NCBI RefSeq assembly: GCF_026930045.1
Contig: NC_072740.1
Location: 29,492,384 to 29,556,383 of the forward strand
Direction of reading: 5' to 3'
Source: Uloborus diversus
Lineage: Eukaryota
Length of the DNA stretch: 64,000 bases
Shown here: positions 8,141 to 52,975 of the stretch, piece after piece
How positions within the stretch are numbered: the stretch's first letter is position 1
How the letters are laid out: each line of letters starts with the position of its first letter
Position numbers and translations under genes: made by a program
The notes under the pieces: model-generated
What the model saw: only the letters and a program-made list of their open reading frames with translations
What the model was told of the DNA's origin: nothing
Databases searched by the model: none

Positions 8141-9637
8141 AAAATGCTTCAACATCGTGCATAAAGGTGATCTCAACACCGTTTTCTGCTTTGACAGAAC
8201 CATGTAGTCTGGCGCCATGTGAGTATGATTGTTTTGATAATCATTACTTCAGACTGCACCTTGAAATCGATCCTCTTGGATACTTACCACACTTTTGGCT
8301 TTGTCTGGAAAACAAAAAATACCATTCATGCAGACATCAATTAGAGTGCCGCACTAAGACCCCTCAAAAAGCGAGACCCCAAAAAGTGAAAAATACCCCT
8401 CAAAACACCCCCTAAAAATTTCAATGGCAAAGTGTGCGCGTCACCCTAAGGGGGGAATCCTTTCATCAATTCACTAAAACTGAATACTGAAGCTATCTAG
8501 ATGCTGAACCGGATATTTGACAAAAATTTAACCCATAATATAAAAACTGGGCCAACTAAACATGGGCATAGCCATCGATTTCAGTTAGGAAGGGGCAAGC
8601 TTACACGCACCAAAAGATAGTGCTTTTAATTTGTCCCCCCCTAGTATAGACTTCAGAAATTACTTGGAAATATAGTCCTCCTCTTCCCCTAAAAAAAACT
8701 TTTTTGATATTTATGGTCAGATGATCGTATAAAAAGGGTTATGGGGCTCCCCCCCACCAGAAATTTTTCGAAATTGAAGTCACTAACTTGCAATTTTAAA
8801 TTATCTTTAGTGACATTTGGAGGGAGAGTAGGAGTCAGATGTTCTCTTTTAGGGAAGGAAAATTACCCCTCCCTGCCCCTTCTGTTAGATCACCCTTCTT
8901 ACAGTAGAGTGACCTTGCACGAAGTGATTTCCACCTCTTTAGACCTTTAGAGAAACACTTTGGGGGGGGGGGGGGGTCAGCATTTCAGAACCAATGCTGC
9001 TGTTCAGCAAGCCCTCTTGATGTGGTTTTCTATTCTTGACGATGATTTCTTCCAAACAGGTTTCAATAGTTTGGTGTACCGCTGGAACAAATGTCTCGAT
9101 AAGTATGGTGACTCTGTCAAAAAGTAATCAGTACCTTTGCCTTCTTACAATACTTTTTTGTAATTCCTGAATAAATTTTTATGCTTTAAGGGCTTGTTAC
9201 CTTACTTTTTGATACCCTTTTGGGTTAGGATACCACCAGTTAGAATGTGTTTTCAGAGAGATCTTTGTTGATACTTGTGCTCTGTAGCAAATGTTGAACA
9301 AGTGCAATAGATATTTTGATTCAGAACCAAAATTTTAAGTCTATATAATTAAGACTGAACAATAATCAGTAAAATGTAGATCGTATCCGTAATAAAATAT
9401 TGCATAAAAGTTGGCAAGTATCCAGGTGGTCAGTCTACCCAAACTTATTATTCAGTAGAATGAGACATACATTTTAAGCCATATTAAGCTATAAGCGAGG
9501 AAAAATTTCATTCTGTAAATAGTAGAAGAAATACACAGCTCTGTCTGTGCCATAAGCCTACTTTTACAGATGGTGAATTATTCATGTATATTCAAGGACA
9601 AAACAATGATTTGTTAAATGATATTTTTTTTTTTCAG

Positions 9638-9803
9638 AATTCAAAATGCATCACTAAAACTCTTGCAAAACTACAAGAAAACTATCAGTGCTGCTGTAGA
9701 AATATCAGCCTTACATAATTTGCAGCCAATTCCAGGAAAAACATTAGTCATATGTGAAATATCGAATTCTATGATTAAAAATTTGAGAGGTAAAAGACAA
9801 AAG
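9638..9803 (+). CDS. RO60: TROVE/Ro60-like gene exon, vWA/MIDAS-like segment (IQNASLKLLQNYKKTISAAVEISALHNLQPIPGKTLVICEISNSMIKNLRGKRQK)
   Basis: Acceptor atattttttttttttcag|AATTC (AG 9636-9637); donor CAAAAG|GTAAAAC (GT 9804-9805), chosen over the upstream GAGAG|GTAAAAG because only it gives phase 0, matching the next exon; aligns with Ro60 [39 protein letters not shown]. Confidence 0.7.
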
Positions 9804-12029: not shown

Positions 12030-12310
12030 GCGTAATATCAGGAAAATATCAAGATGACAGCATGAATCCAGTCTCTAGGCAAGATGACCTTGCTTTTGTA
12101 ATCCTGCATACATATTGATATGACAGGAAAATATCAAGATGTTGTCATGACATCATGAATCCAGTCTCTAGGCAAGATGACTTTGCTTTTTTAATCTTAC
12201 ATACATATTTTCATGACAGGAAAATAACAAGCTATCTTGTCATGGCATCACATCACACTTGTCATGACAGTATGAAATCAGCATGTAGGCAAGATGTTTT
12301 ATCTATTTAT
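12030..12310. repeat. ~100-bp tandem repeat (about 3 copies) in an intron
   Basis: Recurring caggaaaatatcaagatg…catgaatccagtctctaggcaagatgac(c/t)ttgctttt…atacatatt units; related short motifs recur in both orientations at 13130-13420. Confidence 0.6.
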
Positions 12311-14155: not shown

Positions 14156-14314
14156 TTGCAAGAGACGTGTTTACTCACTGGTTTGATGTGCTTAAGGGCA
14201 TGTGAAGATTGCAAAATGACCATTCTGCTTAACTTTGAAAAGCAGGAAAGCATTGTTTTAAATGAATGTGATCAGTTTCTGGAAGTTGTTATGAATGTGT
14301 GTGAGAAATTCAAA
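14156..14314 (+). CDS. RO60: TROVE/Ro60-like gene exon (LQETCLLTGLMCLRACEDCKMTILLNFEKQESIVLNECDQFLEVVMNVCEKFK)
   Basis: Acceptor gtatgttttttttag|TTGCAAG (AG 14154-14155); donor TTCAAA|GTAAGT (14315-14320); phase 0 at both ends; TGLMCLRA…ILLNFEKQESIV aligns with Ro60 [25 protein letters not shown]. Confidence 0.6.
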
Positions 14315-15073: not shown

Positions 15074-16754
15074 CAGTGCGGTGCAAAAGTTTCAGCACAA
15101 CCAAAATCTGTTGATAAAAAGAAAAGTACACTCCAAAAAGCTTTGAAATTTTTACTGTATTTAAACACTCAGCGTACAAATTCACGTTTCAAATTTCGAA
15201 ACAATTCATAGAAATTAAAATAAGATTTCATAAAAAAAATCAAAATTTTGCTGTCACAAAAGGTGAGTCACAAAAATGAAATATTTACATTTATTAAAGG
15301 ATAAATGTCTTTTAGTAGTCTATGGTGTCACTATTGTTCCTGATGAACTCGAATTTGCAATTTTAAATTGTTAGCACAAGACATTGGAATGTTTTGGGTG
15401 TAAGACTGTACCAGGCTTCCTCGATTGTTGATTTTAGCTCTTGTACAGAGCAATACTACATCCCATTCTCGTATACGTCACGTGAGAGAAGTTTCCAGAT
15501 GTTTTTTATGAGATTGAGATCTGTGGATTGAGTGCTGGCCAGTTCATTACACTAATATTTTGAGACACAAGTCATTCTTTTGCACTGTGGGAAGTGTATT
15601 GAATTGTTGTCTTGCTGGAAAATCCAATTAGAACCCAATAGGACTTCACGAAACGCCAACAAATGCTGGCTTAGAGTATTTTGATATGCTTCTTAAGTTT
15701 ATCTGCCCTTTAAAAAGCTAAGGGAAGTTCGTCCATTGAAGCAAAAGCGCCCCATACCACTAGCAAGCCACCACCTTGTTGCCTACTGAATATGCACTTT
15801 TGATCTTCCTTCAAGTTACGCCAATAGTGTGAGAATTCATCTGGACCATCTAAATTCCATTTTTTTTCATCTGAAAATATAGCACTTATCCATTTGACAC
15901 TATAATGCATGGGGTGTTTTTCCCACTGCAGTCTTGCTTGTTTATGACACTGTTTCAGAAAAGGTTTGTAAGCTAACCTTTTTTTTGATAAATCTTGATT
16001 CATTTATTTGTGTGCGTGTGGTATACGTGATATTTTTTTCAAAGTCAAGTTTTTATCTGATTAAGAGACAAATTTCCAGTTAGAGCCATTCTTTTAATTA
16101 TTCTATCCTCACGAAAGGTAGTTTTTCTCTCCTTCCTGAGCGATACACAGGATTGAATTGTTTTCCACGTTCCAGAATGTAATATATACCTCGTTTATAG
16201 CAATTTGTCATTTCTGAAATTTCCGTAAGGATTTAACTTCAGCTTTCAGCTTCCAGAGTTTCGAAATTTCTTTCAGACAATAACTGCAGAGACTTCGGCA
16301 TCCCGATAACACGTTAAACCATTGCTACACTTTATAATTTGTTGCAAAGAATGCACTGGTCCTTCACGCATCACGTTTCAAGAGATCTTTGCATTAAATC
16401 TGATTTGTGCATAAACTTTTGGGACAGCCAAAAAATGTGGTTTGTGCTTTCTGTGATTTTTTTTTATGGTTACATTTTTCAAAATTTCAGACACATATTT
16501 AAGATTTTACTAGTCATCAACAGTAGAAATTTGAAAGCATTCGGTTGAATAGTTTTTTTTTAAATTCAAAAATTTGCAATGTGCTTAAATGATGTGTGAT
16601 AGTACATTCCCAAACTACATCAAAACCATTTGAAAATCATGTCAAAAAGAGTGACTAATTTGTTTGTATGTTGGATGGATAGCTATTTTTAATGACCTCG
16701 GTTACACCGCACTTTTTCTTTTTTCCCCGAAAAGTGCAGTATAACGAGGGGTTA

Positions 16755-16757: not shown

Positions 16758-16831
<74 letters not shown>
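16758..16831. repeat. (TA)n microsatellite, about 36 units, exactly between two Tc1-like termini
   Basis: Perfect TA run between …GGGGTTACTG and CAGTGCTGG…. Confidence 0.95.
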
Positions 16832-21928: not shown

Positions 21929-22237
21929 TCAAATAAATCTTTTTACATAAATACTTAATATTACAACTGTAAAAGTTAGGTAATTATATGGAATAAAACC
22001 TTGAGCTCCATTGGAGAAACAATCTAGATCAGTTTTGAATGCATCAATAAAAGACTTGTTCATATTAACACATTTTGCTTCTCTTAGATCATCTATTGAA
22101 AACTGTGCACAATTAATGTCACTACAGCTGTGTTGATAGTCATATTCACGTATCCACTCCCATATCCATGCCAGTTGGCAATCACAGTGTAGTTGGTTTC
22201 CAGATAGTTCAAGTTGCTGCAGTTGACTTTGTGCTCC
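21929..22237 (-). CDS. chp: chaoptin-like protein, terminal coding exon: last LRR, LRRCT and hydrophobic GPI-signal-like tail, stop TGA (21929-21931)
   Basis: Acceptor ttattctatttttccag|GGAGCACAA (AG = complement of 22238-22239); translation GAQSQLQQLELSGNQLHCDCQLAWIWEWIREYDYQHSCSDINCAQFSIDDLREAKCVNMNKSFIDAFKTDLDCFSNGAQGFIPYNYLTFTVVILSIYVKRFI*; CDC..W..W is the LRRCT signature and matches the chaoptin C-terminus (…LNCDCDLGWVEFW…); small residues (SNGA) followed by a hydrophobic tail are consistent with GPI anchoring, as in Drosophila chaoptin. Confidence 0.7.
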   Translation of the reverse strand, partial: GAQSQLQQLELSGNQLHCDCQLAWIWEWIREYDYQHSCSDINCAQFSIDDLREAKCVNMNKSFIDAFKTDLDCFSNGAQGFIPYNYLTFTVVILSIYVKRFI

Positions 22238-22939
22238 CTGGAAAAATAGAATAATGTCATTTCTAAATTTAGTACTTTCATATTAATAAATGCTATAGTT
22301 ATTATTTCTAATTCATCAGAATAGTACTCTTTCTATTTTTTTTATATTAAACTGCAGCATTGTAATAATATCAATTGAGGCATTACGAACAACAACAACA
22401 AAAAAAATTATTAAATTTTGTTTTAAAGCTTTAGCTATTCTTCTTGAATTAAATTTTAAAACCAATCATTATTTTATAGAATTGAATTCCTTTTCAAATT
22501 TTCCTTTTTGGGATACATTTTTTGGGATGCATGCAACTCCTAAAAACATCCAGACACTGAGTATTAGGGTGGGTTACTGTCCTGTGGTAAAAAACAAAGA
22601 TTACGATTTTCGTTGGGCAGGGCAAGAAAATGGTGCCAAATAACATTTTAAGGTTATATATAAAATTTCATTCAATAAGGAGATCATTTTGTGCCTCTGG
22701 TTTGAGTTTGAAAAACCTGTATTTAAGGAAAAGTAATCTATCTTTATTAAAAAACTGATAAACAAAATTACAAATATGTATAACAGCTTAAAATTTTCCA
22801 AGTATTAATCATTTATTTACTACAATATGATAATCATTAATTTAGAAAATTTAAAATATTCATCTTTAAATAGCTTGAAAGTCCTTCTTACAATCAAGTT
22901 TTGGCATAAGTTTCTGGGACTGCACAATGTAGTTGAAAC

Positions 22940-23165: not shown

Positions 23166-24557
23166 TGGCATGGCAGGCATAGTAAATGCAGTTCTTTTCT
23201 GCCTGAAACAAACTGTTGAATATGTTTGTCAGAGACTGATTTCAGAATTGATGATCAGACACATTTTTCCAGTCAATGAGATTGATGTTAGATTCTGCAT
23301 CAGACTTAACAACAAGAGTTTCAAAAAGTCAGAGTCCATTGTGAGTGGTCAAATGTAGTTGTTAGTATTTTTGTATTTGCAAGATGAAATGTCAAATAGC
23401 AGTGCACTAGCTTGGAAAAATGGTTTTAATTATTTCCTTAGGTGTTTTCGGTCAGGATTTCAAACGATAGTTGCATTTCAAGAGGTAGATTTTTAGCATC
23501 TCTCACTCATTTATGTTGCACGGTAGGCAGGAAGCGTTTGACCAAATTCACACATCTCGGCCAATTCTAACAACTAAAATGGCAGGTGTGAATTTAAACT
23601 AGATGCAAATTGAAAGTTTCATTACTTGTTTCTGTAAGCGATGTAGCATTTATTATTATTGCAATCTTACATAGAACAAATCCTATTTGGGTAAGGAAAT
23701 CCAAATTGCAAACTCAATCCGGAGGCAAAAAGACTGATCAGAATAGAATAAAATTTCACAGAATGCTCTATTTTACACCTTTAAGTATGCTTAATTTTGT
23801 ACTACAAATTGAATTTGTGGAATGTTGATATAAAATTTTTAAATAATTTAATTCCATTTGAAAAATGGATGGGGACATGCCAAAAGTGTGACTTTCTGGT
23901 TAATTTAAAAAATTTTGTGGAAAAACTACATGAGTTGTTGTTTTAATAAGAGTAGAATAACAACAGGTAAGTTATTTCTAACTATTAAAAAATAAAAACA
24001 TTTTCTGAGTTAACAATTTTTGTGTTAGGCTACTGGGACATAATATTGTTAAGACTTTGGAGAATCACCAATATGTCAAAAAACATTTTAACATGAAATG
24101 ATTTTTACTCAATTTTTATTGTAACACAATGATACAACCAAATTGCATGAAAACTGTTACACAAGTTTAATTTTTTAATGGTGATTATGAATCTAATGAA
24201 AAAAAAAAAAAAAGATTGCCATTAGAAATTTGAAAGTTGATTGCATATCTTTATCTCAAGACTATCCCTTAGAAAATTTTTATAATTTAAATTTTATATT
24301 GCATAGTATTTCCGATAGATTGACTAATTTTATGTGTTTTTAGCTGGGGCAAAGCTAACTTGGCAGTGTACATACTGTTGTTATCAGGTTTTTTGTACCT
24401 TTCACAATGTTGATAAGTTGACTCTACCTGAAATATAGTATAGATAGTATTGAAATGAGAAAAAGTATTTAATTTTTTTCTCCATACCACAGGTTAATTG
24501 TTTGTATTTATTCATATTTCTTTTCACATTAATTTTCTAAAGTAAACAGCAAGTTAC

Positions 24558-25349
24558 CTTTTCAAATGTAGTAGGTATTCTTTCAACTGTCTGTAATTTG
24601 TTGTTTTTAAAAGATGCTGTGAAGTTCTTTACTTCATTCATTGTGTAAAACATGTTTCGCGAGAGAGTTAGTAGGTTGGTATTTCTAATATCCAACTTTA
24701 AGTTTGGTGTCTGTAAATTAGTTAAAGCTGATTCATCTATGTGTTTCAAATTTCCACCTTCCAGTACAACAGATTTTACTGATTTAGGAATACTCCCATC
24801 AAGTCCTTGAAACTTTTTGTCTTCAATGTGCAAGTGTATTTCTCTGAGCCCATTATTTTTTTGCAACAACTGACTTACATCAATGTTTTTTAATTTGGAA
24901 TACAAATCCATTTCTATTCTTCTTAAAGCAGTTAAGCGTTGAAAAGCAGCTTTCTGAATGTCCTGCACTTTCAGATTTTTAATTATTAGCTCCTGTAAAC
25001 GTTCCATGTTTCGAAAGCTATTTTCCTGTATTGCTTGAATGGGATTCGATTGCAGATAGAGTGACCTCAAATTATGCAAATGGGACCATACATTGTTATG
25101 TATATTTTGCAGTAAATTGTTTGAAAAATCTAACACTTGCAACTTCTTAAGGTGTTCAAAAGCTTCTGACTGAATGGTTTGAATATTGTTTAAACTTAGA
25201 TTAAGAAATAAAATATTGTTAGGCTCCAAGACTGGTACACTTATCAGGCTTGTGTTTGCAAAGTTCAGAGATTCCAAGCTATTAGGCAGGCTATTTATAA
25301 TCCATTGTGGTACCTCTTCAATTATGTTATGCGAAATGTCCAAAGAAAT
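24558..25349 (-). CDS. chp: chaoptin-like protein, coding exon 2 (264 codons of LRRs)
   Basis: Polypyrimidine tract + CAG acceptor on the minus strand (tctttttactttacag|ATTTCTTTGGAC, AG = complement of 25350-25351) in phase 0 with exon 1; LRR-rich ORF (…SNNLLQNIHNNVWSHLHNLRSLYLQSNPIQAI…LDIRNTNLLTLSRNMF…); the terminal TCCLL* of the ORF is read-through, and the real end is AAG|GTAACT (donor = complement of 24552-24557), which joins in phase 0 to the LRRCT exon. Confidence 0.8.
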
Positions 25350-26214
25350 CTGTAAAGTAAAAAGAGTTACATGATGAGTATGAAATTATATTTTAGACAA
25401 TTAATGTGAAACGAACTAATTTTTATTATTTTTTAAATTGAAATGTTTTTATAAAACAGATAAATTTAATTAAAAAAATTGCTCTTTTTGCTAAATTTGA
25501 AGGGCTGACTTTTTTTCAGATAACACATGAATTTAAAAACTTTATTAAATTGATAGAAGATTCTCCTTCCAAAAGTGTCTTTTTAAATAATATCTTCATG
25601 GAGAGTATAGTACTTTAAGTATTTTAAGCTTGAAATACGTTTTATTTTGATTCTTTGGATCTGCAAACTCTAACCAACTTTTAAAAAATCACAGTTTTAA
25701 GTCTGTTATTTTAAGTTCACTACAGTGAAAATTTTTAATTTTACCTATAAGTCAGTGTTTTTTTTTTTTTTTTTTTTTTTGAGGCAGGAGGATGAATTTT
25801 TTTTAATCATTGTTTCCACAACTGAAAGTGCTCAAAATAGCAGCAAAATAATTTCGTATTTATCATTCAAAACTTTTAAAAAATGAATTCAATATTTCAC
25901 TCATAAGTTGCTAAGCTTTAATGAAAACTAACTTGGGGCAAGTTGAAGCCGTCTTAAAGAATGTTAGAATTTCGCAACACTATTTTTTTTTAAATTATGG
26001 TGTTTACATTTCTATTTGTCTTATGTTTTAAAGGTGCCTGAAGATTTTATTATTTTTTTTTATTTACCTCAACTTGAACGTTTTGTGCTACTTATTTATT
26101 TATTGAAATTGAATGCCATGTTAATCAAATTATTAGCATAATTACTTTGAAGAAAATGATACTATTTCCATGAAAAAATAACGATTTTATGTGCATTTTT
26201 AGTTTTCTCGGGTG

Positions 26215-26385: not shown

Positions 26386-26471
26386 TAAACCTAAACATCA
26401 GTAGTTCAATTTCTGGCTTACTTTTGTGTACATTTGCAAATTATATATTTGAGGAAAATAAGCATACTTAC

Positions 26472-29063
26472 AAGTTTTGGTAGTTTGAATTTCCTTGCTT
26501 CACCAGGTAGAAAGATTCTGTTTTTTGCTATGCTTAAATGTCTTAAATGTTGTAAGCTTTCTATATGACTGAAGTTAAAAGACTTAATTTTATTTCCTGT
26601 CAATTCTAAGGACTGTAATGTTTCTTTAATTTCAAGTAGTGATTCTGTAGGAAATTCAGTTATACTATTATAAGATAGGTCTAACTGTTCTAAAACTGTA
26701 GTTGAAAATAATGTTCTTGGCAAGCTTTCTATTGTGTTGTGAGATGCAAGGAAGATTCTTAATTTATTTTGCTCTTCAAATAAATTACTTGGTAGTTTTT
26801 TAATATAATTTTGAGACAAGTCCAATATTTGAAGACTTCTTAGTCCTCTGAATTCGCTTTCTTCGATGATATCTATTAAATTGTTCCGAAAAACCAAGGT
26901 TTGTAAATGCATCATCTCTGCTACAGCAGAATTCGTGAGATTTGGAATTTGATTATTACTGAAGTCTAGTACATTGATGGAAAGTCTAATTGGGTCAAAA
27001 TAATTATTATCTACATAAGATATATTATTGCTGTTGAAGTTAATGCTTTTAATATTACTTGAAGTGTGACTGGAAGTGTAATATGCAGTTAAATTTTGAA
27101 TTTCATTATGATCAACATCAATTCTCAGTGTTGATAGTCTTCCTACTTGATCAAAAGCCTCTAAGTTGAAGGCAATTAATTTATTATAAGCTACATTTAT
27201 AAACTGAATGTTTGGTAGATTTTGAAATGCTTCATTTTCAATTTCTTCTATGAGGTTTCCTTCTAAGTTAATTGAAATTAATGAATCCAAGTTTAGAAAT
27301 GAAGATTTCTCTATTAATTTTATTAGATTATCATTTAATTGTAAGTGTACTAAATTTTGCAAATCTCTAAATGTGTTCGATTTTAATGAGCTAATTTTAT
27401 TGAAAGCAATTTTTAACTGCAATAAGTTTGGATTATTGATTCCATTAACAAAATTTATTTCTAAATTCTTGAGGTCATTGTGGTCCAAGTTCACAGTTTT
27501 AAGATTCTGAAAAATAGCGAATGATGCTTGGGGCAAATATTGCAAATTATTGTTGCTTATATCTAAGTCTTGTAGTTTTAACAAGTGGCTAAATTTTCTG
27601 TACGGAAAGGTAGACATTTGTAAAGCATTGTGTAGAAATATCTTCTCTAAAGAATGGCCTACATCCTTGAATGTTGTATTTCCAATGTTTGAAATTTTAT
27701 TATAAGATAAATCAAGATGCTTCAGTCCACCAAGTTGTTGAAATGAACCACTCTCAATACTTTCAATCGAGCTTTGAACAATGTACAATTTTTCCATTGA
27801 AGGTCCAATATTTAAAAATTGATGATTTATCTTAGATTTTTGTTTATTAAAAAACAACTCTCTTAGGTTGGGAAGATTTTGCATACTTTCAGAGGAAATG
27901 CCATTCATCTTTGGGCCTCTAATATCTAAATATTTCAGTGTTGTTCCAAAATGTTCGACATCATTAGGTTGAATTGTACCTATTTTATTTCCTGCTAGAG
28001 ATAATTTGACTAGCTTTTTTAAAGCAAGGCTGGGAAACTCAAGTAAATTGTTATAGCTTAAGTCTAAGGTTTGCAATGTATGTGAGACACTATAGAAGGC
28101 ATCATCTGAAATAAATGATATTGAACAATGAGGCATGTATAATTCAGTTATATTTGTTGTCAGAAATGTGTTATTTACTATACTTATTGGATTTCCTTTT
28201 AGTAAAAGACGATTAATATTATTGAAATTCTTAAAACTTTCTGGTAGCAATTCTGTAATAAGGTTGTACTCTAGGTGAATTTCTTCTAAATTGATTTTAT
28301 TCTTTACTTCTTTTCCTTCAGATATTGAAAAAAGTAGATTTTCATTTAGGTTGAGTATTCTCAAATTTCTTAAGTTGGTTAACATGTTAAAAGGTATTTC
28401 ATGAAGCTGATTTCCCATCAGGTTTATGCGTCGTAAGTTGTACAGTTTATTCTGTAATGTGAAATCTTCAATTGAAGTAATAGCATTGTATGCAAGATTC
28501 AGGTCTTCTAGAACTGCCATATTTTTAAAAACATCATTTTGTACATTTGTAATTGAATTTTCAGATAAGTCAAGCACTTTCAATGTGTTGCTGATGCTTT
28601 GAAAATCATCACTTTGAAATGAACTTATGTGATTTGAAGCTAAGTTCAAGTTGTATAGCTTCTCTAATTTTTGTATAGCTTCTTTAGGTACTCGAACTAG
28701 CTCGTTGGTACTGAGATCTAGAATTGATAGTGTTTTTTCAAGTCCTGCTAAAGCATTTGATGGCAGATCACTTAAGAGGTTATTATTAATTTGTAGTTTC
28801 CATAATCCAGTTCCATTCAAACTATTATCTTCTAAAAATCTTAATTTGTTGTTTTTCAAACTCATAATGTAAATAGCAGAATTGTTGATTTGACGGGGAA
28901 CTGTCATAAATGGTATGTTATGGCAACACACTGATCCTAAATCTGGGCCTCCACTTGAACAAGTACATAGTGGATTGAATAAGCAAGGTCTGTGTTGTTC
29001 CTTGTATCTTGATTCGACAATGGCAAGTATAAAAAATAAGCATAATATTTCTTGAAGTCTCAT
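26472..29063 (-). CDS. chp: chaoptin-like LRR cell-adhesion protein, coding exon 1 (ATG at 29063; signal peptide, LRRNT, ~33 LRRs; 864 codons)
   Basis: Continuous 881-aa minus-strand ORF; N-terminus MRLQEILCLFFILAIVES is a signal peptide followed by an LRRNT Cys cluster (CLFNPLCTCS...VCCHNIPF); repeated LxxLxLxxNxI(xxI) units throughout; collinear with Drosophila chaoptin as I recall it (e.g. LEEIHLEYNLITELLPESFKNFNNINRLLLKGNPI vs LDNLHLEYNHIEVLPPNSFKYF...GNPI); the ORF tail after codon CTT (26472-26474) is intron read-through because a canonical GTAAGT donor (minus strand; plus 26466-26471) begins exactly at a codon boundary. Confidence 0.85.
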
Positions 29064-30749
29064 CTGGAAAAAACAAAAAAGAAAGAAATGTTTAGCATTA
29101 GAGAATTCTGATACTAGTTTTTGAGTTTAGGGTGGTGGCAAGGGGGATTAAGGGTTACATCCCAGGTTCCTTGGTTTTAATCCACATTACCAACACTAGT
29201 ATACTATCTTTTATAAGTGTAACGACTCTTATGACCCCGCCCCCCATAAGGTAAATTCTAGCTGTGCAAGTATTTAAGTTTGCGAATCAGTAACAAGGCT
29301 TGACATGTAGCTGTATGTATATGACCTGGAGCCTGAGGGATTGCTAGCACAGGTAAAGGTGTTGGTCATGACCTGTCCTCTCTTAACACGACTAAACATA
29401 AAAATGCATTTTGGGAGCTTCAATTTCGAGAAATTACTGAGGGAGAGCCCTTGACCCCCTGGTGGCTGGATATTATACTTTTAACTCTCACTTCCAATGA
29501 GTATGCTCATATTTCAATAATGCCCCCCCCCCCAAAACCATAAACAGGATCTACTTTAGGGAGGGAGGTTTCATAACAATCTTTTCATGTGTATATACTT
29601 GTATACTAGACTAGGAAACATTTCGTGTTTCAAGCTACAGACCAACGGTTGACCCCAAAAACCCTTCTCTTGTTTCTCTTCTGCTCATCACTGGTTCACT
29701 AGTTTTCTACGCATCGACCAGTACAGTTAGCTCACATCCTTCACTCTTTGCAAAAAAAAAATGATATTGTTTTCAGAAAGAAAAAAAAAATCACTGTATT
29801 TTACTTTAAAATGTTAACACCAAGTGTGAGTGTTAAACTTTATAAATATGAATTAAATATTTATATTCAGAATGAACATCCTTTTAATTGTGTATTTGAG
29901 TGTTAAGGTTTTGCATGGAATTGCTTGTACCATTTAGAATAAAAATCTTCTTTTTCATATGTAATGGCGATTTATACTTTTCAATGGGTGTTAAAGACTG
30001 GTCATATGATTTTTGACCCTGAGCTTAACCTGAATTCGCTCATATTTTAGAATTCTAAACTTTTCCCACTGCTAAATTGCAATTCCAAAACACATGTATA
30101 GTGTAATACAATTTAATTTTAAGATGTAATGAACAAAAATGTCACCCTCTTAAAACATTAATGTTATTTAGATTATATTTTAAAAGTTTCTAATATATTT
30201 TATTCTAGTTAATCAAATGGTTAATCAGGGGCATTTAAAATTGATTTTAGCAATAGCTATCATCGATTAACATGCACTTAAACTCGTGTGTTAATACTTT
30301 CCTTATGTTATTATATCATCCATTTATTTGAAACGAAATTTAATTGTCGAAATTTTTTTTTTTGGCATGTATTCAAATGAAGAACAAAACATTTCCTAAC
30401 AGACTAATTTAAATTTTAAATCCCTCTTTTTATTGTAACACAGAAACCATAACCTAATTTCTTATAAGCAGTTGTATAAATTTGTTTATAGGCAATTAAA
30501 TTTATGTTCTCAGTTATTCACTAAAATAAATTGACATGTGGCCATACTTATCAGAATCTGCCTGGGGGAGGGCAAGCACGGATCACGTGCTGAAGTTAAA
30601 ATTTTAGTACAACTTTTAAATTTTGAGTAACTATTATTAAATTTTAAGTAAGATAGAGATTGTTTATGGAATTTTATAAAAAGTGATGAAATAATAGACT
30701 AGTGCATTCTAATTGCAATGTTTATTTTTTAAACTGTCATGTGTTCACC

Positions 30750-31226
30750 AGAGCTAGATAATGTAGACGCACGCGCGCACGCCGATACATCCGATGACGT
30801 GCGGAAACATCGCCGCGGATGAGTTGCATATCGTCCGATAATCGTATAAGTTCATACGTTATAACGTTTAGGTATCGTTTTAAATTGATATTGATATTAT
30901 TTATTTCGATTGTAAAAATTATTTCCAGATAGTTTATACACCCGCGCGTTCGGTGGATGTATTTGCTGTGAGCACCCGCATCTCGCGATAATCGTTCAAA
31001 TTCTTACTTCTAATTGGTTTTAAACTGATATTATTTTATTCATTTGTAAAAGTTATAAATGGATAGTATATGCATAAGCGCCTAAGGTGGATACAGTCGC
31101 TGCTGTGCGGATACATTCGCTGTGGGCACGCGCATGTCGCGATAATCGTTCAAGTTCCTACTCTTCACTTAAAATTTGTTTTCAACTGATATTTAATTAA
31201 TGTGTAAAAATTGTCAATAGATAGTA
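30750..31226. repeat. ~160-bp satellite-like tandem array (left part, about 3 units)
   Basis: Repeated units (…gcg(c)taaggtggatacagtcgctgctgtgcggatacattcgctgtgggcacgcgcatgtcgcgataatcgttcaagttc…aactgatat…gtaaaa(a/g)tt(a/g)t(a/c)aat(a/g)gatagta) at about 30760, 30925 and 31075. Confidence 0.75.
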
Positions 31227-32587
31227 CACTCCTGTTTGTAAAAATTGCAACACCACGAAGGACTTGCGCGAGTGAGCTGAAAATTGCAGGAAATGCAAAG
31301 TAGGGCATGATATGCAAATGACTAGAATTGCAGACCAGTAGCGCAATAGTAATAGACGGCTGTAGCGAGGTGTGTATGATTATCGGTGGTTATATGCAAG
31401 AGTAAACGTTAACTGAATCGTTACTATGCCTCTTCGACGAAAGAAAGCGAAATTTGAGCAAATTTCGGAGTTTGAACTGGCAGAATCGTCGGCCTTCGTG
31501 AAGCTGGACTGTCTTATCGTGCAGTAGCTGCTCGTGTGCAGTGTAAAAGCAGCACAATCATGCGTGTTTGGAAGCAGTGAACGGACGAGGGTCGGACAGC
31601 TTGGAAATCCGGGAGTGGACCCCGAAATGTGACGTCAGTTCGCGATGACAGACACCTGGTGCGTATGGCGCTGACGGACCGCACAGCTTTTTTCTAGGCA
31701 ATTGGCAGCACAGTGGTCAACAGCTACAGGTGTTTCATTGTGTGCTTTATCAATTAGGAGACGTCTGCTGCAGCTTGGACTGCGCGCAAGGATTCCTTTA
31801 TACAAGATTCCTCTCACTCAAAATCATCGCCGCTTGCGGCTACAATGGGCCAATGTGCATAGGAGCTGACGTGCTGATTGGCAGCAGGTCGTCTTTTCTG
31901 ACGAATCCCGTTTCAATTTGTGGCACTATGATAGCCGAATTCGTGTCAGGCTACCGGTGAACGGCACATTATCGAACGCCACAGTGGACGAACACCCGGA
32001 GTAATGGTCTGGGGTGCCTAGCATATCATGGACGATCACAATTGCTACGAATTGTGAGCAATTTGAACAGCACCCGATACATAAACGAAGTTTAACAGCC
32101 TCAAGCTATTTCCTTTCCTGCAAGGATTGCCAGGGGCTGTATTCCAGCAGGATAATGCCCGTCCACATGTCGCCAGGACTGTCAAATCCTACCTTGATTT
32201 GCAGCAGGTACAGCTTCTTCCTTGGCCTGCATATTTCCTGGATATGTCACCGATTGAACATGTGTGCGATTTCGTTGGGCGGCGTCCCGCTCGTGATCCT
32301 CGTCCTGTTGCTTCGACAGACGAACTTTGGTTGCGCATACAAACAATATAGAATACTCTTCCGCAGGCAGATATTCGAACTTTGTTTCACTTCATGCCGA
32401 GTCGTGTAGCAGCTGTTATTGCGGCGCGTGGTGGCCACACAAAATACTAATTTCTATCTCTTTTTATCGTTTGTTTGGTTTGAAAATGTAATCATTTATT
32501 TGTACCATTACCACTCAACTGTGCATTAAACTTCATTGAACTATGATGCTTCCTTCATGGTGTTGCAATTTTCACAAACAGGACTGT
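31227..32587 (+). mobile_element. Tc1-family transposon (1361 bp) inserted at TA inside a satellite unit; transposase pseudogene
   Basis: TIRs CACTCCTGTTTGTAAAAATTGCAACACC (31227-) and GGTGTTGCAATTTTCACAAACAGGACTGTG (-32587), each with a flanking TA; internal frames match the widespread arthropod Tc1-like transposase (SRQLAAQWSTATGV, SIRRRLLQLGLRARIPLYKIPLTQNHRRLRLQWA, FQQDNARPHVARTV, LPWPAYFLDMSPIEHVCDFVGRRPARDPRPVASTDELWLRIQTIWNTLPQADI) but with several stops and frameshifts. Confidence 0.85.
31427..32447 (+). pseudogene. Tc1-like transposase pseudogene
   Basis: Starts MPLRRKKAKFEQISEFE…; ends …AARGGHTKY*; reading requires at least 3 frame changes; in-frame stops after LDCLIVQ and DPEM. 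Confidence 0.8.
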
Positions 32588-32880
32588 GTATACGCAAGCG
32601 CGTAAGGTGTATATATTTGCTGCTGTGCGGATACATTCGTTGCGAGCACGCGCATCTCGCAACAATCATTTAAGTTCTCCTTCTTTACTTCTAATTTGTT
32701 CAAAATTAATGTTGCTAAGGTAAAACGTAGTAATCATAGCTAGATAATATAGAAGGACGCAGACACGCAGATACATTCGCTGCTGTAAGAAAATATTTGG
32801 TGCTGTGCGGATACATTCATTGCGGACATGCGCATCTCGCCATAATCGCGAGTAATGTTCTAGTTTCCCACCTGTCCTTT
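32588..32880. repeat. ~160-bp satellite-like tandem array (right part, about 2 units)
   Basis: tatacgcaagcgcgtaaggtg…gctgctgtgcggatacattcgttgcgagcacgcgcatctcgcaacaatcatttaagttc… and a second unit from about 32740; the first unit is completed across the Tc1 insertion when joined to 31226. Confidence 0.75.
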
Positions 32881-35800
32881 TTTCCTTATGTTAAAAAATT
32901 ACTAAAATGTTAATCCTCCCTTCTTTTCTCCTATTCATCAAGTTGTGATAACTGAGCAATTCTTTTCATGTTGCTTAGACTTTCTTTTTTTTCATCTTTT
33001 TTTTTTGGCACTCATATCAAATTACAAAAGCACCTGTGGCTTTAAAACTTATCATATGGGGCCAGCAAGTTCGTACTTGCCGTCTTTTTGGAAGTTTGCA
33101 GCGCGCCCGGCGTAAGCGCTGCGCTTTAAGTTTAACGAACAATGTGAAAGAAAAGTTGTTTGTGTTAGTTTTTCTTCTTCTTTTTTTTAAAGGTATCTGG
33201 AACGCTATTTAAACAGATTAAATGTTTCAAAAAAAAAAAAAAAAAAGAAAAAAGAATTTCTTAAAAACTTAACTGAACTACCCTAAATCCGACAACCACG
33301 GACTTTGCCGAATTTCGGATTGCTGCCGAAAATTGTGACATTGCGCATGAAAAAAACTTTGAACGATCGCCTTTATGTATCTTTACAAAAGTTATGAACT
33401 TACTTTGAAATAATTACAGGATAAACTCGCTTAAATTTCAGCACTTTCCTCCAAACAACGATGCTTAAAGCAAGAGATTCGAACTTTATACCGTGAAATA
33501 AAAATTTCTCAAATTTTCCCGATCTATACTCGAAAATTTGGACATTTTTCCGATTTTAGCTCAGTCCTTTTAACTAAAAACTAACGCAATAAAACACATT
33601 CTGGCATAATTTAATATTATCTTCCCGTTAATTAAAGACTTAAATTAGAGTAGAAGCTAAACTGTGCAAAAAAGACGGGACACCCCGATTGTGAATTCAT
33701 CAATATTTTGCATAGTTAATTGCTTGTGAAAAAAAAGCATGTTTAATAATGCTACCAGAAATTCAAAAGGAATATTTTGTTATTTTCCGTTAAAACACAT
33801 TTTGAAAACAATCCTGATCATTACGAAGAAAGTTCAAAACATTTTTTTCCTCTTTTTTAAAATAGTTTATTTTCTGTAAAATGTCGTATATTGTAAAAAA
33901 ATCGTATGCGCCGCACCCGCTGTATCCACCACATCGGCAATTTATAAACTTTTTTTTTTCGCAGGCATGCGGCTTAGGCCCGAAAATACGGTATAGTTTT
34001 GGAATCCTTGTGTGCTATTAAGGGCTATAAGGCTGTATTATTATTATTACTATAAGGCTATATTAGGCTATTAAGGGACCTAAGGCAGATGGGGGACTTG
34101 CTCCTAGTGGTATCTCTCATCTTCATTAATAACACTCTTGCTACTAGATTTATTGCACTTGTTTTTGTCCCCTCCCTCAACAGAGCATTTCCAAGAAGCA
34201 GCGAATTGCTAGTTTTTCCTTTGTTCTCAGAAATTTGTGTATCTTATTGATTTCTTAACTTGGGAGCTGAAGAAGAGAAAGGTCCCACCAATGTAAGATC
34301 TGCAGTGGAGATATAATTCCCAAAAATATGTGAGCTTACGAATGCAAATATATCTGCTAAAAGAAGCTTAATTTTAAAATTTAATTTAGGTCCTTGCATC
34401 CATATGCTCACATAATTGGCATGACAATTAGTTCCTTGTAATTTCAAAGCATATACCTGCAATTATTTGCAATTTTGGGCTTTGTAACGCTGTTTTAGCC
34501 AACGAAGTTTTACAAAATGTATTTATTTCTTATGATTAATTTTTTTTTTTTTTTGAATCCGAACCACCCTCCCCGATTTTTTCAATTTTTTTATGTGATA
34601 GACAATTATTAGCTTGCACATACTTTTGAGTTGCGTGCGCAGATACTTTATATTTTTATCTAACTCTGGTGTTCACAGGGCTGCCGAGAGCCAACGCGTG
34701 TCCCATTTCAGTTTTATAACTGTCCCTCTCCTCCCATAACCCTATACTCTTCAATCTTATAACTACAATTCCGAGCTGGGCTCCTAGTTTCGGACTTGGC
34801 TGATATACCCTTGGCGGCCCTGTTTGTTCAAAAGGATGTTTTACTTCAATCTGTGACCCCCTTTGTTTAGCAAATACACGAAACATTCAGCTCTTTCATT
34901 CGCAAAATATGAGTGAAAAAAAAATGAATCTAATTGCTTGATGCTCGTTAGTAATAAATGTGATGTATTTCTCTTTATATTTTAACAAACTCTTGTAATG
35001 ACATAATTGGTTACATTTTGTCTGAAATATGAGAGGGAAAGTTATTACATTTTTAACGCAAGCACGGCAAAACTCTTTTTTTTTTCCAATTTGCTAAATA
35101 TCATGAATTTTCTAAACATAGCAATAAGTTGTCCTATGAAATACCCAATGTATTATCGGAATCTGATTGGATAAAAGTCTGTAGATGTGCTCGTGCGTCC
35201 ATAAAATTCATTTTTTTTTTGGCTTGGCGCATCTATTCCATAGAGTTAAGAGTCGATTGTAGGGTAGACCGGGGCACGTTTACGCATGGGGTATGTTTAC
35301 CCAGTGCCCTTTTTTCAAAACAAATTATAACTGGAGAGCCAACAGCCATAACAGATTGATACTATTCCCTAGCAAATATTTCTCACAAGTTTTTGGCCAT
35401 CAGTCGAGCTTCGGTCTAGCATGCGGAAAGGATAATCTGTTTTTTACCAAGTTGAGTAAATTTCGTGTTGAACGTTTTGAAGCTTATTGTGAATGAATAA
35501 TACTTAGTTAAGAAAAACAAATACATAAATATTAGCAGAATTTTATCTTTTTTTGATAATTGTACTTGTATGAACTGAAATGTTATTATTATTATTATTA
35601 TTATTATTTTTGCCCATTAAAAAGAAATCCAAACTTGGCGACGAGGCAAGTTTACGCGTCGATGTCGAAGCACCTTTATACACACGTTCTTACTGTGTCT
35701 CACTTAAACATGCCCCTGACACTTTTTTCGCTCCAAACTTTCTCAAACCTCTTTAGTATTTTCCAGTAATTTAGTTTTGAAAATTACCACTAAATCTTTA

Positions 35801-43060: not shown

Positions 43061-46000
43061 TTGGGACCGTTTAACTACTAAAGCCAAGCCCATACTATTT
43101 TATGTTTTTCTGAGTACAATACCACAGTGAATAGTTAATCCTGTACTGATTTTTGAGGGTCACTCACGACTTTAGCAGATATCCGGGCACAAACAAATAA
43201 CGGTTCAATTGACCTTTGCCCTCAAAACTATGAGTGGACCACCAAATTATTTATGCTAGCTTGTACCTATAACCAAGTAGTGTCCGTATTTAAAAAAAAC
43301 CGCTTGGTTCGCTCAGTGCTTTTGAAACAAAAACGATCATTTGTCTCGCGCCATATATTCACGACATTAAACTTTAACCTCTACTCAAAGAGAACAAATC
43401 ACATTAAAAAAAAAAAAAAAAAGAATAACTAAAGCTTTTTTCTTATCATAGTACTACTAACACATCGTGAACTTTTTACGAAAATCGAAGACATCATCTA
43501 TCACGAGATGTCAAAAAAGAAAAAAAAAAAAAACTCTTAAGCAGGGTTATTTGTACTTAATTATTTAAATTCAAGTGACTACATATTGTAACATTTACAA
43601 TGAGAGTTCATAAGTTTTAAAAGTATCCAATATGGCGATCGTTCGACATTTTGCATCCACCATGTTGAAATTTTCGTTTGCGATCCGAAATTCAGCGAAG
43701 TTCGTGGTTGCCGCATTAAGGTTCTGAAACTGCATAAAAAAATCATGTTTTTTTTTTCAAAAATCTTTAAAATGTTAAATTTGTTTAAATTGCATTCCAA
43801 TTTTCTTTACTATTAACTTCACTTTTAAATTGTGGATGCGGCGCATTTAGTAGATATTTTTATTTTTTTCATACATCTTTGCAATGCGGTACTTACAACG
43901 GGTGCGGCGCGTACTCCCAAAAATTGCGTACTAGAACTTTTGAATTAGTTTTAAAGACAAAATTATGTTCCGCCTGATATTTTATTGAAAACTAGAGGGC
44001 TCAGTCTCCTGCTCGCCAACGACAACAACCGTTCGTCGACTACGGCTGCTGCGTCTTGGCGATATTTTGCAGATTGGGCGACAGAACTAGGAATTTCTCG
44101 AAGTATCTGGCGACTTAATCGGCTATATATCTCCAAATTTAGAGCCAAACGGGATGATAGTTAATGATTTGAATGATTTAGTTTTTAATTAATATTTCTG
44201 GCGGGTAAGTTAAAGATTCGAGCGAAATGGTTACCTCAGAATGCCTTGTATCCTACGATGCCTGTATCGGCTGTCGAGACAATGATGGTCCGTAGGAAAT
44301 AGGGTTACAGACTCATATTAAGCGAACCTTTTAACCAAGGTAGTCATGTTTTATGTCTTATCAGATGAAATATGTTAATATGTCCTTACCATCCAGGACA
44401 AAAGCTATAAACACGTGGTTGGTAATGACAGGCTGAAGATAGAATTAAACTAAGTGCATTATTTCTAACGTTTTAGATGCTTTGTTTTTTGAAAAAAAAA
44501 TTTGGTATGGTGTCCCCCCCCCCCAAAAAAAAGCACCGTTGAGAAATATTATATATGATTACCATGCTTATTTTATTTTATTGTAGCACTGAAAAGTTCG
44601 ATTATCTTTAGATCACACTGCGTAAATAAAAATATAATACAATGCTTCAAAATGTGGCTACACTCTTTGGTTCCAAAAACTTTTAATTTGTACCAGGCCA
44701 CAGTGGAAGAGCTGAAGGGGGGGAGACCGCTGAAGAGTTCATACAAAACAAATAAGAAGAAAACTCTCAAAACTTTATTTTTTCTAGAAAAAAAACGTAC
44801 GATTTTCCTCTGAATATCGTAAGTTTTGCGAAATTCCCCACCCCTGTCCCCTTCCAGCACCATCAAAATTAGTCTAAACTTTTGTTTTCGGTACATCAAT
44901 GTCAAAACAATTCCGGGGGTGATCCCCCAAACCCCTTTTCCTCATTAAAGTTTGTCGGAAATTGCGTAATTGGAAATTTAATTTCAATAAATTGCTGGGA
45001 TGAATCCCTGGCCCTGGGCACTATTCCTATCTCTAATATTACTGAAAATGGCACACAATCGTGTTTTACAGGCTGCAAATTTTGGAAAACTTCTTAGGGT
45101 ACTGAGCTTCCCCCTCTCTAGCATCACGAAGATAAGTCTGGAGTGAAGTGTTTACAGCTACAATTCAGAAAAGTTTCCTGGCGAGAATCCCAGCCCCCCC
45201 CCCCTTCTCTTTTGTAAAGAATATTATTCTTATGACTACGTTCATATTGATAATTTCGATCCTCTGCCATGCATACATAAACATAAGCAAAAAGTGATGT
45301 AAGCAAAAGTTAACTTTATTGCAATTGTGAAAATGACTCTATACTAATCACAGTAATAAAAAAAACGAACCGTTCTCACTTACGATTTCAAAAATTATAC
45401 ATTCCCGATCTTAAATTTGCTTACAACATTTTATTTTTACGTTTTTCAAAATGTATATTTGAAACTTTCCCACCGTTGAATTAAATAAAACCCTTCAAAA
45501 CATGCCCGGTTTTTTTGAGATTTCCGGATTTCGGAAGTTCGGATTTTCGAGTTCGTACTATGTATGTAATACAAACATGTATTCTAAGTGAAAAAAATGT
45601 AGTATCCGCCGAATCCCCCCCCCCCCAAAAAAAATAAGCAGCATCGGCCACTGCCATCCCAAATGTATTTGGTTGTTCCTTATAGAAAATTTTGTCTACT
45701 CAATTTCATGTCGCATGTTTTTTGCACACATAATTTTTCTCTCTAGCAGACATCCGTTGCTAAATGTGTTAGTGTTCATTTTCAATTCCTGCTTTGAGCT
45801 CAGATTGACTTATTGCTGATTATTTTTTTAATCTCTATTATTTTACGAAAGTTTTTACTTGTATAAATTGAATAAAGAAGGTTAGTATTTTATGCTATAC
45901 GTTCCTTGTGCTTTATACTTAGAGTAATATAGAGAAAAAATGAGATTCCATATAATAAATGTTCTTTCTTTGCACTTGATTTTCTCACTTAAAGATTCAA

Positions 46001-48290: not shown

Positions 48291-51289
48291 AAAATATCAC
48301 AAAGCCGATGGTATAGGGTTGTCATAGCAAACGTAGTCCAATCATAGGCTATCGCTATTCGAAGTTTCAATAATTGAAACTTCGCGCCCCGCGACTCTTT
48401 TCCAAAAATTTTCGCTCTGCAGGCAATGAGTTGGCGTTGGAAAAAAAAATCATTACTCAGGGAAAACTCGCGTTGTAGCCATTTCGCGTAAGTCGGATCG
48501 CGTTGTAGCGCGATCCGACTGTATTTTACAAACTAGAAACACGATATTTTCCCAAAATCACCATAATTAATGACAATATCGCCTGTAATTACCTTGGTTG
48601 AGAGGGACTCGGAAAATAAAGAGTAATTTATGATATAGAAAATAAGAGTAAATAGAGTACCCTTGTAAATGATAGCAAATTAACATATTAGACATTTTTC
48701 TTAAAGATTCGTTTGTATTGTATTCACAATTACCCCACTATAGAAACCGTGAAAATATTTTACCTATTAGTGCAAAAACAAATCTATTGTTTAAAGGCAT
48801 TAACTCATATGGACCAAGATCATGGACCACCTTACCCAACTGTTTAAAAACCATAAATAGCAGAAATTTGTTTAAGAAAAGGCTTAAAAATTTTATACTC
48901 AATTCTACTGCAATTAATTTAGGAAAAAGTAGCGTATTTGTAATAGTATACCTTGATTTTGTTATAAATTTCGACTTATTTTTTTGCATTACTTGTGTTG
49001 TGTTTATGTGTTCTTTGTATGATTATGCATATAAACTGGTCTTAAATTAAGTTTTACTTTTCTGAGTGGTGGGAGCTAGTCAGGCTATTGTTATAGCCTT
49101 TACTTCCACCTACTCAATCAGGGATTTTCAAATAGACAGAGTGAATTATACTTCTGTTAGTAATTTATTTCCTGTTATTCTCATCTGTGAAATGCATTTT
49201 TTGTAAAAAATACTACCCTGATCGAAAAAAAGAAAAAATGAATATATACCAATAATAAAGAAGATATCACTAGTAAATTTTCAAAATATAAAGAGTGATT
49301 CTTACCTTGATAAATTAAATTTTCGAATATAGAATCCAAATGTACTCCACATCTGTCGTGCGGGAGAATTTCCCCTCTTCTTGCTTCTGGTGTTTCTGAG
49401 GATTAACTGAAACGGTCCTAATAGGCTTAGAATATTTTCCAGATATTATTCGTGCTGAGGTGTGCTTTTATATAAGCTTTTGAAACTGTGGTGCTTCAAA
49501 AGGGGAAAAGAAAGCCCACAAGTTCTTGGGCCTATTTCGATATCGTCAGAATCGTTTCGTAAACAGATGTAATATTAATCGATGAGTCACATAAGTACTC
49601 GATGATTTGGGGGGGGGGGACTTGTTCGCATTGCATTTAGTTTTTTTTTCTGTAATTCAAAGTAAATTTTAAAATATGCTGGAATACATACCCTTTTCCT
49701 GAAAACTGGCTAGTTTTATTAATGATGTATGAAGCTTTTATCGTAATTTTCCGAAATGTTTAATGTGTTGAAACTTAACCTAGTATTTTTTAAAAAATTG
49801 TGTCATTTTCCTGAGAAAATGAAAATTTTCCAAAAAAAAAAAAAAAAAAACGAAATAGCATTTTTTTTCACACTCTCTCTTTCTTTTTTCTTTGTTGTTG
49901 TAAAAATAAAAATTCATACTTGCTTGAAGCTTGTATAGTGCCCACAAAATGTAGTGCATTTCAATACAAATCGAGTTTTTAGGAAACTTAAGAATTAATA
50001 AATATAAGTTTAAAATTCATACTTACTTGATTCTGGTGTAGTGCCTGCAAAGTGTAGTGCATTTAAATAGAAATTGAGTTTTAAAGAAATTTAAGAATTC
50101 TTTCAAAGCACGATTTAAAATCTCCGAAAATGTTGTTTTTTAACGTTACAAAATTCAAGTGTTGGGCACATTAGTTAAATTTTTAGTTGATTGAATGAAT
50201 TTGACCAATTTTTTGGTGAAACTAATCGATTGATTCGTGCTTAAATTAATCTGCGTTGGGCACATTAGTCTTTTGTTTAGTTGCTTAAATTAATCTGGCT
50301 AACTTTAACTTGGATTCATTTCAACTAGACGAAATTCAGTTCATTTATTTCTGATTTTTCTTTTAAGTAGCTATTGAATCAATTCAAAATAACCCTTTTT
50401 CACTCGTATTTATGTAGCATTGTTATTTTTCCTCAACCGTCATTAAATTTGAGCAAACTTTTCATCAGTTGGGAATTATTTTTAAATACTCATTCATTCA
50501 TATGTTCATTTATTAATTGTTTTACTTACTTATTCACGGCACTCACTCATCATTCACTCATTAACTTATTCATTCATTATTTTTTTCTCTTGCATTTATT
50601 CACTCACTCAAGTCTGGATCTATAAATTTTGGGCCCCCAGCAAAAAATCACCAGGGCCCCTAACCACCCATTGGATTCTCCCCCCTCCCCAACGAGGGAT
50701 TCTTGTTCGTTTTTAATTACTTCAATATTTCTACCTTAATTTTGAATTCATTTGTTTAAATATTTTTATTTCTTTATTATTACATTCGATTTTTTTTAAG
50801 GTTTTGAGTAGTTATGTGGGGCTTTTTATCCATATTTTTGGATAATCATTCTGTTTATGAGTAATAGTACCGTAAAATCGTCCAACTATGCGCCATTTTT
50901 CGCTGTTTTCAATGAAAATTCCGTGTACATCTTTGATTTAGAAATTTGAGGACTTTAGCAATGGTAGCTATGCATCTCATCTTTCAAATGAAATGTTAAA
51001 AAAAATCTAAGTTGGAAAGAAGAGGAAGGGGAATTTTTCCCCCGTGGCCGATAGTTGTACCCCTACGGGGTACAACTAATGCACAGTGGTGCAACAGTGG
51101 CCCATTGTTGCTCCCTTGGCACAAAGTTGTACCAATGGGAGCAACAAAGTTTATGGTAGCAAGTAATCAATGGAGCCAAAATTTCTCAGGACGTTTCTCA
51201 GTATTCTAATTTTATTCAATCTTTCAATTCGATTTAAGTTTAAAAAAAAAAGAAAAACCAAAACTGTTCTCCTCTGCATATCTGGGTTT

Positions 51290-52829: not shown

Positions 52830-52975
52830 CACGAGTGTGTGTGTGTGTGTATGTAGGCATGTGTGTGTGTGGGTAGTTGTGTGTTTGTGTGTGTGGGGGG
52901 AGTATGTGTATGTGTGGGTAGTTGTGTGTATGTGTAGGTGTCTGTATGTATGCGTGTGTGTATGGAGACGGTTTT
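52830..52975. repeat. GT-rich imperfect minisatellite ((GTGT/GTAT/GGGT)n)
   Basis: gtgtgtgtgtgtgtatgtaggcatgtgtgtgtgtgggtagttgtgtgtttgtgtgtgtgg…; ORFs 52816..53016 (+) and 52829..53071 (-) are artefacts of it. Confidence 0.9.

Follow-up and report, generated by a model that had tools for sequence, protein, structure and literature searches.

A decayed spider Tc1 element within a short degenerate tandem array of Uloborus diversus

When a Tc1 transposon is flanked on both sides by direct repeats, one may ask whether the repeats belong to the element or to the host and, in the latter case, which of the two was present first. Here, we consider this question for a locus of the spider Uloborus diversus at positions 30749–32870 of a 64,000-nucleotide stretch of contig NC_072740.1 (positions 29,492,384–29,556,383; the whole stretch analysed is hereafter called the window, and all coordinates refer to it). 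In our opinion, it is very probable that a Tc1 element inserted by the cut-and-paste mechanism into a pre-existing, short and degenerate intronic array of five units, and subsequently decayed in place. An earlier note on this DNA, made from its letters alone, had described a Tc1 copy caught inside a satellite. Each of the strings that it quoted occurs once, where the note had placed it: AATAGATAGTA at 31216, TATACGCAAGCGCGTAAGGTG at 32589, the string from the intact unit at 31057, the CpG-rich string at 31105, and the left terminal repeat at 31227.

According to a reading of positions 30000–33800 combined with a repeat scan, the locus contains a GC-richer block of about 1.36 kb (47% GC) between 37-nt inverted repeats, embedded in direct repeats. 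The scan yields inverted-repeat arms at 31226–31262 and 32551–32587, 37 nt long and 92% complementary. Combined with the comparison to related elements described below, it defines the following features of the element:

31227–32588 (alternative end, 32586), + strand: decayed Tc1 (DD34E) element, 1362 bp (alternatively, 1360 bp)
31227–31262, + strand: left terminal inverted repeat (TIR), CACTCCTGTTTGTAAAAATTGCAACACC..., from the inverted-repeat scan and the comparison with relatives
32551–32588, − strand: right TIR, with a 2-nt CT insertion at 32584 relative to the closest relative, L001, if the element ends at 32588
31426–32450, + strand: transposase pseudogene, from the frame-corrected translation and alignment to intact relatives
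31225–31226: left copy of the TA target-site duplication, from the junction alignment and the flanks of the relatives
32589–32590: right copy of the TA duplication (alternatively, TG mutated from TA at 32587–32588)

The transposase reading changes frame several times, and its frame-corrected translation (341 aa) was pieced together from three forward frames. It matches the Pfam domains HTH_Tnp_Tc3_2 (PF01498, E = 5.3e-14), DDE_3 (PF13358, E = 1.8e-09), and HTH_38 (PF13936, E = 9.6e-07), as well as the catalytic domain of the Sleeping Beauty transposase SB100X (5cr4, E = 5.7e-17). The search for intact copies of the same family, recommended in the earlier note, produced 1608 relatives in a collection of 5.8 billion proteins. 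The best ones are intact 345–346-aa proteins (P0002–P0004), 87–89% identical to the window transposase; below them, the spiders Stegodyphus mimosarum and Trichonephila clavipes contribute hundreds of entries annotated as "Tc1/Tcb1/Tcb2 transposase". The second D (FQQDNARPH...) and the E (...SPIEH) are separated by 34 residues, counted on the alignment, in the window copy as well as in the intact P0002.

For comparison at the DNA level, we used the contigs encoding transposase relatives, namely, L001, L003, L004, and L005, the last from S. mimosarum. In the end-to-end alignment the element is 94.2% identical to L001 over aligned bases, and BLAST identities are 88% for L003, 88% for L004, and 83% for L005. 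Homology to all four begins and ends at the TIR ends, all four having the same termini. The element is a Tc1 (DD34E) of the Tc1/mariner superfamily, with every structural feature examined in place except an intact open reading frame (ORF). The assignment to Tc1 made earlier is supported by these data, but the lineage, then called a widespread arthropod family, is specifically a spider one.

The ends of the relatives allow us to locate those of the window copy. L001 reads TA|AACTCCTG...CAGGAGTT|TA, and L005 reads TA|CACTCACG...CGTGAGTG|TA, while the left end of the window copy reads TA|CACTCCTG and its right end, ...CAGGACTGTGTATACGC. The right end can be read in two ways. In reading A, preferred by the aligner, the element ends at 32588, the right TIR has acquired the CT insertion, and the duplication is TA/TA. 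In reading B, the element ends at 32586, the TIR contains one substitution, and a TA-to-TG mutation has altered the right copy of the duplication. The ungapped register of the flanking units is offset by 158 to the left of the element and by 1520 to its right; the difference, 1362, fits reading B without an indel, and reading A requires a 2-nt indel in the unit. The junction alignments, with 104 matching columns each, score 72 for A and 73 for B, and shifts of the right boundary by at least 4 nt lower the score steadily. As the two readings score alike, the limits of the element are validated to ±2 nt and not to the base. Thus, the earlier claim that the insertion point, the duplication, and the boundaries validate each other internally holds at the former precision only, and, of the limits proposed then (31227–32587), the start stands but the end should be 32588 or 32586.

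The flanking repeats comprise five head-to-tail units at 30749–32870. Three of these precede the element, and two, including a truncated final one, follow it. The five share the same direct orientation, as is evident from both the repeat scan and the unit alignment and as had been noted previously. Phased at the ...GATAG|TA... junctions, the units are:

30749–30932, + strand: U1, 184 bp, the most diverged edge unit, with a GC-rich CpG core (30765–30853) and an AT-rich tail (30854–30932)
30933–31066, + strand: U2, 134 bp, with one copy of a 20-nt subrepeat
31067–31224, + strand: U3, 158 bp, with adjacent 20-nt subrepeats at 31087–31106 and 31107–31126; its start, TATATGCATAAGCGCC, is the paralog of the empty site
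31225–31226 plus 32591–32748, + strand: U4, 160 bp in total, interrupted by Tc1
32749 to about 32870, + strand: U5, about 125–132 bp, truncated at the array edge, with three copies of the 20-nt subrepeat region and without the AT-rich tail

The five direct units predicted from the sequence are therefore present, but they are not uniformly about 160 bp long. The length variation comes largely from the presence of one to three copies of the 20-nt subrepeat GCGGATACATTCGCTGCTGT in the core. The anatomy of the unit is bipartite: a core of about 60–97 bp with 48–56% GC is followed by a tail of about 70–80 bp with 19–27% GC that is nearly free of CpG. The blocks common to the direct repeats include GCTGTGCGGATACATTC and GCATCTCGCGATAATCG. 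Pairwise identities of the units are 56–78%, the central units being most alike, and the edge units U1 and U5 share their own junction variant, CTAGATAATRTAGA.

In the native window, Tandem Repeats Finder (TRF) calls no array at the Tc1 locus. After in-silico excision of the element and one copy of the duplication, it reports a 156-bp period running across the junction (2.3 copies, 79% matches), and, with relaxed penalties, 3.0 copies with 72% matches. The excised junction aligns to that between U2 and U3 with 104 matches out of 133. Hence, a TA within a tandem array was the insertion site, and the neighbouring unit does represent the empty site, as the earlier note had proposed. Two core motifs are confined to the array within the window, the numbers of matches expected from shuffled sequences being 0 and 0.08, respectively; chance is excluded as the source of this pattern of array and insertion.

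The state of the transposase was assessed by counting lesions relative to the intact L001 copy. Upstream of the ORF, 43 nt are deleted at 31345. Within the transposase, there are five frameshifting indels (a 1-nt deletion at 31478, and indels at 31688, 31952, 32019, and 32109), in-frame changes at 31760 (+3) and 31967 (−12), and four premature stops (31578, 31867, 32093, and 32349). The D..D..E residues are still legible despite these lesions, and their 34-residue spacing is kept. The window Tc1 is a dead DD34E copy, unable to encode a transposase, and not an active member of its family. The stops and frameshifts reported from the sequence alone thus reflect real damage, but the two stops specified then, which follow LDCLIVQ and DPEM, belong to the wrong frame, because the frame of the ATG had been followed past the 1-nt deletion at 31478, where the homologous frame reads RIVGLREAGLSYRAVAARVQ.

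The array is also CpG-rich, again in line with the initial description: its approximately 760 bp contain 55 CpGs compared to 29.1 ± 4.3 in shuffled sequences, the observed/expected ratio (o/e) being 1.9 vs. 0.72 for the window. Among 760-bp stretches of the window the median is 14 CpGs, and the maximum, 52, is at 30751, that is, at the array. In the unit cores, the CpG o/e is 1.5–2.2. Comparison of the Tc1 element with L001 reveals no directional decay of CpG to TpG (7 out of 85 CpGs, vs. 6 out of 74 in the reverse comparison), which is consistent with a locus unmethylated in the germline; such a state would explain the survival of CpGs. Germline non-methylation does not explain an o/e exceeding one; a more likely reason for the latter is the composition of the founder unit from which the array was amplified.

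Taking these observations together, we propose the following history. A small tandem array would have formed first, most likely by local unequal exchange or replication slippage. A Tc1 element of the lineage abundant in spiders would then have integrated by cut-and-paste at a TA, duplicating it; the target would have been the TATA-rich boundary between two array units (...GATAG-TA-TAYGCA...), and the pre-insertion site may be reconstructed as ...AATAGATAG-TA-TA(TA)CGCAAGCGCG.... The Tc1 copy would subsequently have decayed in place, and the array, no longer homogenised, would have gathered mutations as well. We infer that the array came first from the levels of divergence: the units differ from each other by 22–44%, the element differs from its intact relative L001 by 5.8%, and its TIRs from each other by 8%. 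Since the units differ by 22–44% and the element by about 6%, the array was likely already old, or at least heterogeneous, when Tc1 integrated. Nothing suggests any interaction between Tc1 and the array beyond the chance use of a TA.

Several points weigh against this history. The right boundary is ambiguous by 2 nt. The CpG o/e of the cores, 1.77, exceeds the neutral expectation and is not explained by a purely junk array drifting alone. Finally, the Tc1 relatives used for comparison come from other spiders or samples and not from this genome, which bears on the age of the insertion, the ancestral termini, and the uniqueness of the array.

The genomic context of the locus is formed by two genes, identified as follows:

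5531–5674, 9624–9767, 14165–14269, 49444–49497, and 60936–61039, + strand: exons of a TEP1-like gene (TROVE + WD40), from tblastx
22000–22267, 24522–25360, and 26430–29084, − strand: chaoptin exons, from comparison with Stegodyphus dumicola and Nephila pilipes

The chaoptin ORFs are at 24537–25343 and 26418–29063 on the minus strand, with the ATG at 29063, and the protein is 66% identical to that of S. dumicola, its best match, and 64% identical to that of N. pilipes. In the annotation of both these species, chaoptin is antisense between or within the TROVE- and WD40-encoding parts of the TEP1-like gene. Judging by these annotations, chaoptin in antisense orientation in a large TEP1-like intron is a nested-gene synteny conserved across distantly related spiders. 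Because TEP1-like exons flank them on both sides, the array and Tc1 are intronic in the plus-strand TEP1-like gene; they lie 1.7–3.8 kb upstream of the ATG of the nested antisense chaoptin. The regions upstream of chaoptin in S. dumicola and N. pilipes show no similarity to the array, although at 64–66% protein identity this is a weak test. A distant Tc1-like relic, with 28–60% amino acid identity in patches, is observed upstream of chaoptin in S. dumicola (L081, 5467–8136); it is an independent insertion and not an ortholog of the window element.

Away from the array, CpG content varies as well. The large chaoptin exon at 26418–29063 is extremely CpG-depleted: its o/e is 0.28, compared to 0.72 in the window as a whole and 1.9 in the array. 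Strong CpG enrichment (o/e of about 2.0) recurs at 61500–62050, in a patch shortly downstream of a TEP1-like exon. Motifs of the CGATA/TATCGATA type are abundant in this patch, its sequence is unrelated to the array, and it may be a promoter-like island. This strongly heterogeneous CpG landscape suggests mosaic germline methylation.

The term "satellite", used for the array in the earlier note, is the first point at which other explanations have to be considered. The array has the head-to-tail arrangement of a satellite and lacks the homogeneity of monomers, its five units, about 760 bp in all, being 56–78% identical and 134–184 bp long. That it is a satellite is unproven, and we prefer the conservative label of a short degenerate tandem array. 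It is nevertheless possible, if doubtful, that this spider has a true and abundant satellite family and that the array, on which Tc1 happened to land, is a short euchromatic outpost of that family. The units are head-to-tail and within the typical satellite size range, divergence is higher in the edge units U1 and U5 than in the central ones, as it is in real arrays, and bona fide satellites are known to occur near genes as short arrays, with up to about six to ten monomers (PMC10048060). Against this, there are just five units, divergent and of unequal lengths, the 64-kb window contains no second array of these units, and neither S. dumicola nor N. pilipes has anything similar upstream of chaoptin. 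The metagenome, prokaryote-genome, and viral collections, none of which holds a spider genome, yielded no homolog. The 17-mer core GCTGTGCGGATACATTC occurs 75 times in metagenome contigs and 35 times in prokaryote genomes, and is absent from viral contigs. In whole-unit BLAST on the metagenome loci, no 17-mer match extends past about 20–41 nt, including the two matches situated 189 bp apart in L046, and the 35 prokaryote matches, not extended by BLAST, are single matches in bacterial contigs, about the chance number for a collection of this size. The 17-mer matches in the metagenome loci are due to chance. In the literature on spider satellites, or on Tc1 within spider satellites, we found nothing specific.

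The array might also be an internal tandem-repeat module of another mobile element, such as a Helitron/Helentron or a tandem-repeat miniature inverted-repeat transposable element (MITE), with one transposon nested in another. We regard this as unlikely, even though arrays of fewer than ten monomers often are constituents of Helitrons or MITEs (PMC10048060). A candidate for such an element could be a dispersed repeat of about 280 bp at 33188–33468, 320 bp downstream of the array, which has an inverted copy at 43537–43809. However, this repeat stands apart from the array and no array adjoins its second copy; the link was rejected on these grounds. Moreover, the array is bracketed by no inverted repeat other than an AT-rich match of 14 nt, which is no better than chance. 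The dispersed repeat itself, whose copies are 68% identical, adjoins an A-rich run, and both copies lie in CpG-rich patches; it is probably a short interspersed element (SINE) or a MITE-like element.

More speculative explanations stem from the CpG enrichment. A broader proposal, to which we give little credence, is that the bipartite CpG-enriched repeat, situated between antisense-nested chaoptin and its TEP1-like host gene, is a putative lineage-specific unmethylated regulatory or boundary element, or else that a dispersed satellite family has its seed or an outpost here; the GATAG-TA-TA junctions of the repeat would serve as recurrent landing sites of Tc1. It also seems very improbable that the repeat is a putative functional, unmethylated cis-regulatory block (promoter-, enhancer-, or insulator-like) lying between nested chaoptin and the TEP1-like host gene, which block Tc1 disrupted or within which it was tolerated. 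This would agree with the CpG density, the highest in the window, with the position of the array relative to the chaoptin ATG, and with the fact that the best-conserved blocks shared by the units are CpG-bearing motifs such as GCATCTCGCGATAATCG; the lack of directional CpG decay in Tc1 is likewise consistent with the unmethylated germline state that it assumes. On the other hand, the units are decaying, and there is no conservation at the orthologous position in the two other spiders. No RNA family or tRNA was found by Rfam (at the gathering threshold for the whole window, and at E ≤ 1 for 30400–33300) or ARAGORN, and hence the units are neither a known RNA gene nor a tRNA-derived SINE. We infer that the array has no function.

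Lastly, that the units are part of the transposon, as long ends of the inverted repeat–direct repeat (IR-DR) type, has practically no chance of being correct, since, apart from adjacency to both ends of the element, nothing favours it: the units are direct and not inverted on its two sides, and the complete relatives L001, L004, and L005, compared exactly because the earlier note had named this as what would refute its interpretation, end at the same TIRs, have TA duplications, and are followed by flanks unrelated to each other and to the units. When the five units were compared by BLAST to 80 loci (including L001–L005), only seed-length matches of at most 41 nt, nearly all of 20–29 nt, were obtained, these being in the metagenome loci, and the candidate was rejected. 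The units are independent of the element, and insertion of Tc1 into an existing array is the history that we retain.

Several other repeats were observed in the window. A weak second Tc1/mariner-like relic lies at 15515–15970 on the minus strand (26% identical to P0002 at the amino acid level over 159 aa, E = 2.8e-07; stop codons are present). A retroelement relic is located at 57228–58104 on the plus strand, its ORF at 57228–57587 matching RVT_1 with E = 1.1e-06, just under the Pfam cut-off. Small tandem repeats are found at 12054–12250 (93 bp × 2.1), 49909–50099 (103 bp × 1.9), 16758–16831 ((TA)37), and 52835–52961 (imperfect (GT)n).

It is routine to find a transposable element inserted in a tandem repeat in which a paralogous unit provides the empty site. 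What is new here is a dead member of a known spider Tc1 lineage together with a previously undescribed local repeat. Only one feature is mildly unusual, namely, that a decaying repeat located upstream of a nested gene is strongly enriched in CpG. The cleanly delimited dead copy, with its termini, TA target, and lesions defined relative to an intact relative, is useful for a repeat library of spider elements, and the locus illustrates the use of a paralog of the interrupted unit as a substitute for the empty site. Beyond annotation, the significance is small; the CpG-rich array would become interesting only if it proved to be a family dispersed throughout the genome, or a regulatory island upstream of chaoptin.

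Among the known systems, the array resembles short euchromatic arrays, such as those of the Drosophila 1.688 family and arrays of fewer than ten monomers borne by transposable elements (PMC10048060), in having few head-to-tail monomers of 130–180 bp in a gene-rich region. It differs from them in that it has no identified parent satellite or carrier element, and in that its monomers are much more diverged (56–78% identity) and vary in length via the 20-nt subrepeat. The transposon shares a homologous catalytic domain (5cr4, E = 5.7e-17) with Sleeping Beauty and the salmonid Tc1-like IR-DR elements, but it has TIRs of about 37 nt instead of long IR-DR ends, and the repeats at its sides are host sequence in direct orientation. 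The closest correspondence is with the spider Tc1 (DD34E) elements of S. mimosarum and T. clavipes: the short TIRs, the TA duplication, the length of about 1.4 kb, and the single transposase gene with paired-like helix-turn-helix domains, the DDE_3 catalytic domain, and the 34-residue spacing are all alike, and the proteins are 74–89% identical to the window transposase at the amino acid level, the difference being that the window copy is a pseudogene (four stops, five frameshifts, and deletions). At the left terminus, the window element begins with CACTCC, as does L005 from S. mimosarum, whereas its closest relatives, L001, L003, and L004, begin with AACTCC.

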